Origin: a virus
Taxonomy: Duplodnaviria > Heunggongvirae > Uroviricota > Caudoviricetes
DNA length: 26,071 nt
Direction: 5' to 3' (one strand)
Virus record (IMG/VR): IMGVR_UViG_2909309443_000007
Made by a program: the position numbers and the translations under genes. This document shows positions 13,753 through 14,501 of the stretch, in pieces (the first letter of the stretch is position 1; each line of letters opens with the position of its first letter). The notes beneath the pieces are model-generated. The model ran no database searches. It was not told where the DNA came from and saw only the letters and a list, made by a program, of their open reading frames with translations.

Positions 13753-13940
13753 ACATAAAATCCTGCAGGTCCCCTGCGTCGCTGTGTCATGCCGGTCTGC
13801 ACCTCCAGCTCCGCAATGTATTTTTTCAGGTCAGACACGGAAGTGGCCGTAAACTCCACTCGCCGTCCGTCTTTCTGTACCGTTACCGTCGCGCCACCCA
13901 GCGCCGCAGCCGTGCCGGAACCGGATAAGGGTTCAGACAT
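13749..13940 (-). CDS. Head-tail joining protein W-like, with a divergent N-terminus
   Basis: C-terminal two thirds …[43 protein letters not shown] matches recalled lambda gpW. AGGAGG Shine-Dalgarno before the ATG at 13940. No terminase gene upstream. Confidence 0.7.
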
Positions 13941-14028
13941 ACTTCCTCCTGAAAATAAAAAAAGGGCCACCAGCGACCCGTAAAAAAACACCCCGTCAAA
14001 GGCACCCGCAGATGCCTTTTGTGTGATG

Positions 14029-14181
14029 TTATTCAGATTTTCGCAGTAAAGGCCGGAGCACGATCAGCGCCATCGCCACCAGCACACCATCTGCCAGCAC
14101 TGACATCAGTCGTCCGGTGAAATCCACCATCACTACCAGAAACAACAGGATGACAGCCAGCACAAGGCGCGCACTTTTCAC
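14029..14181 (-). CDS. Possible small hydrophobic peptide (about 50 aa, GTG start overlapping the upstream stop)
   Basis: Read by hand; not in the ORF track because it is short. Sequence [50 protein letters not shown]. Confidence 0.25.
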
Positions 14182-14402
14182 AGGTACTGCTCCAGCGGCA
14201 ACTGCAGCGCCTGCGCAATTTTCTTCAGTTGCGCTTCTTCTTCCTGACCGATACCGTCCTGGTCAGCGATATCCAGACACAGACACAGCACATTCACAGT
14301 ATCATCAGTATCTGCAACATCAGTCAGCTGACGAAGGGCTTCAGCATTAGCAGAACGCGGTGGCGCTTCATAACGGGCGCGGATATGAAAAAGGCCCGCC
14401 AA
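14178..14402 (-). other. 74-codon ORF with no ATG, probably a 3' gene remnant at the deletion scar between the tRNA cluster and W
   Basis: Acidic C-terminus …[31 protein letters not shown]. Only a TTG start, lying inside a hairpin next to the tRNA. Confidence 0.25.
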
Positions 14403-14424
14403 AGCGAGCCTGGAAAAATAAGCG

Positions 14425-14501
14425 TGGCGCGTTGTACTGGATTCGAACCAGTGACCGATTGCTTAGAAGGCAATTGCTCTGTCCGGCTGAGCTAACAACG
14501 C
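14425..14501 (-). tRNA. tRNA-Arg (anticodon UCU)
   Basis: Hand-folded cloverleaf: acceptor GCGTTGT/ACAACGC, anticodon loop CTTCTAA, T-arm GGTTCGAATCC, discriminator G plus CCA. Confidence 0.85.

Follow-up and report, generated by a model that had tools for sequence, protein, structure and literature searches.

A holin–W gene fusion marks the deletion of the lysis and terminase genes from a lambda-like potC/potB prophage of Escherichia coli

Rac, Qin and DLP12 of Escherichia coli K-12 are lambda-like prophages which have been fixed in the chromosome by internal deletions, a general pattern amongst such elements (PMC6379469). The prophage described here bears a clear likeness to them, in that the immunity, dicB, hokD, exonuclease and Q-region genes are kept and the morphogenesis genes are not. 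It differs from them in its site, between potC and potB, and in its age; as an essentially intact copy which is 99.96-100% identical survives in another strain, the element is much younger than the K-12 cryptic prophages and its deletions can be mapped to the base. Unlike DLP12 and Qin, which still have lysis cassettes, this element is without one. Two further systems are close to it in the late region. The late region of the Stx2 phages (933W and Sakai VT2) runs Q, ileZ-argN-argO, stx, lysis, and the methylase end and tRNA cluster of these phages are 91-92% identical to those of our element and in the same order; here, however, a tciA'/tciB pair takes the place of stx, and the middle one of the three tRNAs is decayed. 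This pair follows the order, and has the same gene overlap, as the tciA-tciB-tciC module of phage P1, for which the GenBank notes give functions by homology only, but the TerB-bearing half of tciA is missing here and no tciC is annotated. The nearest relatives are the intact prophages of strains 504838 and H10407 (the latter enterotoxigenic, ETEC), which have the integration neighbourhood, early region, methylase, tRNA cluster, tciA'/tciB, W and portal in common with our element but keep a 4.8-kb block from holin to W, as well as head and tail genes, that it lacks.

The window, by which we mean the whole stretch of 26,071 nucleotides analysed (IMG/VR record IMGVR_UViG_2909309443_000007), carries the phage genes around this locus on the - strand, and downstream therefore means towards lower coordinates. 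The element carrying it is a lambda-like prophage, as seen from the RefSeq annotation of strain E8, to which the window is 99.96-100% identical apart from one inverted tail-fibre segment (3.1 kb). The E8 prophage is bounded by host genes on both sides; potC is next to the integrase and excisionase genes, and potB is next to the tail-fibre genes at the opposite end. When positions 13700-14720 of the window were searched by megablast against 5,426 complete E. coli genomes, an end-to-end match of 100% was found in six chromosomes, those of strains E8, E54, E1316, E1648, E1654 and E1739, whilst many more genomes matched from 13884 upward only and then ran into a gene annotated as 'putative holin'. 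The host lineage of the prophage is enterotoxigenic-type E. coli. The tail-fibre segment is invertible; it occupies 1428-4583 of the window and lies in the opposite orientation in E8. Its two ends are inverted repeats of 33 nt (1428-1460 and 4551-4583), which are 94% complementary, and as the recombinase ORF which adjoins it is annotated at 65 aa only, inversion may need an invertase encoded elsewhere.

The reference for the comparison was the intact prophage of strain 504838 (NZ_CP025856.1, here L007), which also lies between potC and potB and many of whose proteins have the same accessions as those of the window; it serves as a stand-in for the ancestor and is not the ancestor itself, its cro being annotated as frameshifted. 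By BLAST, window positions 12339-13884 correspond to L007 12455-14000 (1,546 bp, 100% identity) and positions 13884-26071 to L007 18834-31021 (12,189 bp, 99.96%), so that L007 14001-18833 is missing from the window as one clean deletion of 4,833 bp. The gene order in L007 is methylase, tRNAs, a truncated hypothetical gene, DUF3927, two holins, an M15 peptidase, three small ORFs, terminase small subunit, terminase large subunit, W, portal, protease, decoration and capsid. What has been lost from the window is therefore codons 1-24 of W, both terminase subunits, the three small ORFs, the M15 endolysin, the second holin, and codons 20-129 of the first, Phage_holin_8-type holin. The missing genes were assigned to PHROGs as holin (phrog_198 and phrog_217), endolysin (phrog_465), terS (phrog_57) and terL (phrog_15), with which the RefSeq annotation of the segment agrees. 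The prophage of H10407 (L002) has the same order at about 97% identity, and the gap relative to the window is 5,075 bp there.

The first-pass annotation had proposed that a large deletion took the lysis cassette and the terminase genes from between the tRNAs and W, and that the expected order in this type of phage was tRNA, cargo, lysis, Nu1/A terminase and W; both points are borne out, the order by the intact relatives and the deletion by the collinearity of both flanks with L007. The junction is identical in 6 of the 5,426 complete genomes and is found nowhere else amongst them, and since six independent complete genomes share it and an intact copy holds the missing 4,833 bp, the deletion is real and owes nothing to faulty assembly or to a different order of genes. 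The annotation of the E8 prophage between int and potB contains no gene for a holin, endolysin or terminase, whether in the interval after the tRNAs, contiguous with it in another order or elsewhere, which also agrees with the earlier claim that these genes are absent. Nor was a displaced copy apparent when the 5,075-bp segment of H10407 was used as a query against the complete genomes; the six junction strains were absent from the best 60 records, all with at least 64% coverage, and from the 29 genomes which hold at least 80% of the segment. Part of the deleted segment is matched in 4,552 genomes, the matches lying in other prophages, and other prophages in the junction strains may supply terminase and lysis functions in trans.

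The deletion junction lies at 13884-13885 (- strand), with the sequence up to and including 13884 coming from gene W and that from 13884 upward from the holin gene. When the two parental sequences are aligned with the product across the junction, they have a single base in common, the T at 13884, which gives a microhomology of 1 nt. Read in gene sense, the holin gene runs GGT GGC GCG ACG GTA before the break and TTC after it, the W gene runs GTG GCA ACG GTA CAG, and the product is GCG ACG GTA ACG GTA CAG. The hexamer ACGGTA (TACCGT on the + strand) thus occurs at each of the two breaks and is read in the same frame at both. A crossover within this hexamer was considered and rejected, as both copies survive in the product, and the survival of both copies points to illegitimate recombination of the end-joining type.

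Three other junctions were mapped in the same element. Near 12340 the portal gene is joined to an FII-like head-tail gene (3.4 kb lost relative to L007), near 11955 the tape measure gene is joined to a tail protein gene (2.7 kb, again relative to L007), and near 9167 J is joined to L (3.4 kb relative to the prophage of strain E1433, L003). All four junctions share 1-3 nt only, which is typical of illegitimate recombination, and the four deletions together remove about 14 kb. The portal gene itself (lambda B family; 12341-13752, - strand; Pfam Phage_portal_2, 1e-96) has its 3' end cut by the deletion near 12340, is marked by PGAP as lacking its C-terminus and is out of frame at the junction with FII. 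Essential lytic genes are thus missing relative to L007 and L003, with breaks that can be mapped in each case. Whilst the count of four large deletions in the first-pass annotation is correct, its view that the loss of the lysis and terminase genes explains why the prophage is cryptic is not, since any one of the four would make the prophage defective.

Taken together, it is very probable that the locus is the scar of a single illegitimate-recombination deletion in a lambda-like potC/potB prophage undergoing ordinary decay. The ancestral late operon would have consisted of a Q-like antiterminator, DNA methylase, tRNA cluster, tciA'/tciB, two holins, M15 endolysin, small ORFs, terminase small and large subunits, W and portal, from which 4,833 bp, with holin codon 20 at one end and W codon 24 at the other, would have been lost at the 1-nt microhomology. 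The holin ribosome-binding site, ATG and first 19 codons would thereby have come to precede, in frame, the final 44 codons of W. Judged by gene content, host lysis would have been lost with both holins and the endolysin, and DNA packaging with the terminase genes. With the three head and tail gene deletions the element would now be a fixed, harmless remnant which could still provide immunity, dicB, hokD, methylase, tRNA and tciB functions. The packaging (cos) site was probably lost with the segment too, given its usual place upstream of the small terminase gene; the lambda cosN 12-mer GGGCGGCGACCT is absent from the intact relative as well, and in the window it has one match only, with one mismatch, at 5859-5870, which is at chance level.

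Loss of the same block in other copies of the prophage raises the question of whether it was neutral. The prophage of strain E1433 is the same element (99.97% identity over 12-14 kb) but has been broken at other points. In the sister strains E1433 (L003 13704-14057) and E1620 nucleotide 354 of the holin gene is joined to a point just upstream of the major capsid gene, with the loss of 7.9 kb. This junction is found in these two strains only, and the deletion likewise removes the lysis and terminase genes; as the two degraded forms cannot have arisen one from the other, the lysis-terminase block has been lost at least twice. In related prophages the IS66-family element ISCro1 lies in the head gene region (H10407, L002 765-3380) or in the large terminase gene (ATCC 43896), and these insertions are other routes to inactivation.

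One reading of these events is that the deletion was selected and not neutral, the loss of the lysis and packaging block being favoured as a form of prophage 'taming'. The separate 7.9-kb deletion and the ISCro1 insertions would fit such a process, and disabled prophages, which are prone to deletion, may be favoured in their lysogens over inducible ones (PMC6379469). However, both degraded copies also have deletions of tail genes, which pose no risk of lysis, so that an unselective deletion bias fits the pattern equally well; moreover the sample amounts to three states of one prophage, with neither an estimate of rate nor a test against a neutral expectation. Selection is therefore a possible but somewhat doubtful explanation. 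The further proposal, that under selection this block is lost preferentially, with at least two independent losses in closely related ETEC-type lineages and IS insertions in others, seems to us distinctly unlikely; if true, the locus would show at base resolution how prophage 'taming' recurs in nature, possibly with the fusion product still translated from the holin start signals. As it stands, the pattern fits the accepted picture of disabled prophages as deletion-prone elements, and ordinary decay remains our preferred reading.

The product of the fusion is a W-like chimeric ORF of 63 codons (13749-13940, - strand), in which holin residues 1-19 (13884-13940), with the holin gene's own AGGAGG ribosome-binding site and ATG, are fused in frame to residues 25-68 of gpW (13749-13883). 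The W part reads TVQKDGRR...GFYV and makes up the last 44 codons of the gene. The non-lambda N-terminus of W which had been remarked upon in the first-pass annotation is thus indeed foreign, and is the start of a holin. Lambda W has 68 aa, and the chimera covers only positions 18-66 of the 66 in the Pfam gpW profile (PF02831), the solved structure of lambda gpW (PDB 1hyw) aligning with it at residues 20-68. It has no match to Phage_holin_8 (PF16931), of which 19 N-terminal residues are left; the holin of an intact relative, by comparison, matches positions 1-121 of the 121 in this profile at 3e-23. In PGAP/RefSeq the chimera (WP_001393479.1) bears the name of an intact protein, 'phage head-tail joining protein', which is an annotation error brought about by the in-frame fusion.

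It could be argued that the chimera is a functional new small protein which has been retained for a purpose, since it is in frame, has the strong ribosome-binding site and ATG of the holin gene, and is annotated by PGAP as an intact protein. Yet one in three deletions would be in frame by chance, and by a frame calculation the neighbouring portal/FII junction is not; the chimera occurs in six closely related genomes only, so there is no evolutionary sign of retention, and it lacks both the rest of the holin family profile past residue 19 and positions 1-17 of the gpW profile. We consider this explanation highly improbable. Missing the hydrophobic core of the holin and the N-terminal third of W, the chimera is predicted to be non-functional as either protein and is most likely an inert small protein, possibly still translated.

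Upstream of the chimera, and unaffected by the deletion, lies an interval of 484 bp (13941-14424), in agreement with the roughly 480 bp previously noted between tRNA-Arg and W. The order from the tRNAs towards lower coordinates is an ORF at 14178-14402, an ORF at 14029-14181, the W-like ORF and the 481-codon portal ORF. The upstream boundary of the interval is formed by tRNA-Arg (anticodon TCT; 14425-14501, - strand), which was called by ARAGORN and scores 70.1 bits against the Rfam tRNA model. Beyond it is a second tRNA with a CAT anticodon (14599-14674, - strand; Rfam 72 bits), called as Met by ARAGORN and as tRNA-Ile (ileZ type, Ile2) in RefSeq. Between these two is the decayed middle member of an ileZ-argN-argO-type cluster (14518-14591, - strand), which was not called by ARAGORN and whose Rfam tRNA score of 23.7 bits is below the gathering score of 29. 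In strain IrN there is an intact tRNA-Arg at this position, the alignment to which contains many substitutions, and the decayed form is common to the window and H10407.

The 74-codon ORF at 14178-14402 has a TTG start only and is marked by PGAP as missing its N-terminus. A terminator-like hairpin read from the sequence directly 3' of tRNA-Arg (14392-14411, - strand) overlaps the first codons, and the TTG at 14402 is on this account no real start. The ORF has no match in Pfam or NCBIfam and was identified through tblastn on phage genomes and through PHROGs. By tblastn its residues 6-74 match genes annotated as tellurite-resistance or TciA genes in P1, P1-like phages and several lambdoid phages, and in PHROG 632 it covers positions 73-143 of 143. 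BLASTP against P1 TciA gives 52 of 69 residues identical (75%, E 4e-38), so that the segment 14178-14387 (- strand) is the 3' half of a tciA-like (TerB-family) gene and corresponds to residues 73-141 of the 141-aa P1 protein. The TerB domain (Pfam PF05099), which lies at residues 11-57 of P1 TciA, falls within the missing part, and the window ORF is without it. What the ORF encodes is thus the 69-residue C-terminal part of a protein like P1 TciA. The gene is also a PGAP-marked pseudogene in H10407 and 504838; the first-pass annotation was right to regard the ORF as startless and truncated but not to regard it as a remnant of this deletion, because the same truncated form in intact prophages makes the truncation older than, and unrelated to, the loss of 4,833 bp.

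The second ORF (14029-14181, - strand), which had been taken as debris in the form of a possible 50-aa hydrophobic peptide, is a complete gene for a TciB-like membrane peptide. It starts at a GTG which shares bases with the stop codon of the ORF upstream (GTGA). The near full-length match to Pfam DUF3927 (PF13064; 1.1e-14, 54.6 bits against a cut-off of 25) spans profile positions 4-48 of 53, that to the 'TciB-like' PHROG 1470 (1.7e-23) spans positions 3-51 of 54, and identity to P1 TciB is 49%. The identical protein (WP_000833651.1) occurs in the intact relatives. A literature search on TciA and TciB returned only unrelated papers on Trypanosoma typing, and the names used here are those in the P1 GenBank notes. 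Between tciB and the holin start lies a further terminator-like hairpin with a T-run (13964-13979, - strand), seen in a consensus scan only; it is also present in the intact relatives, within the block which is 99.96% identical to L007.

The tciA'/tciB pair has this same form in 504838, H10407 and E1433, with holin sequence following in each, and tciB is cargo in its usual place between the tRNAs and the holin. Phage Fostie, which has no tRNAs here, carries full-length tciA together with tciB directly between Q and the lysis genes. This arrangement suggests that tciA may have lost its 5' half long ago, when the tRNA block took its place.

That the 484-bp interval is itself the scar, with ORFs left over from lost cargo or lysis genes and perhaps a toxin gene amongst the losses, is an explanation for which the truly truncated acidic ORF, the absence of a plausible start, and the presence of toxin genes after this same tRNA cluster in the Stx phages (91-92% identity to the Stx2 phages) might be cited, but alignment to the intact relatives refutes it and leaves it scarcely credible: the break falls within the 'W' ORF, at 13884 and some 60-500 bp from where it had been placed, the sequence from 13884 to 14720 is 99-100% identical in prophages which still carry holin, endolysin and terminase genes, the 50-aa ORF is intact, and in 504838, H10407 and IrN the holin follows directly after tciB, so that the slot holds tciA'/tciB only and no toxin gene.

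The value of these findings lies mainly in annotation and record-keeping. The break is placed exactly at window position 13884, WP_001393479.1 is seen to be a holin'-'W chimera and not an intact W, and the small ORFs downstream of the tRNAs are recognised as P1-type cargo, the pair tciA'/tciB, as opposed to deletion debris, whilst the suspicion that a toxin gene was lost here is removed. The process by which prophages are dismantled is already well known. As both a near-identical intact copy and an independently deleted second copy exist, the element could nevertheless be a case study of how fast, and where, lambdoid prophages are dismantled.

Two features lie further upstream. A two-gene insert on the + strand, 19370-20284 and 20300-20779, lies between hokD and the Q-family antiterminator gene and codes for a DUF6731 protein and a hypothetical protein; PADLOC returned no match to a defence model for either of these ORFs or for the methyltransferase at 324-992. 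The prophage also has two antiterminator-like genes on the - strand, one for a DUF1133 protein (16352-16906) just upstream of the late region and one for the Q-family protein (20785-21308) further upstream, which suggests that the late-control region is a mosaic.
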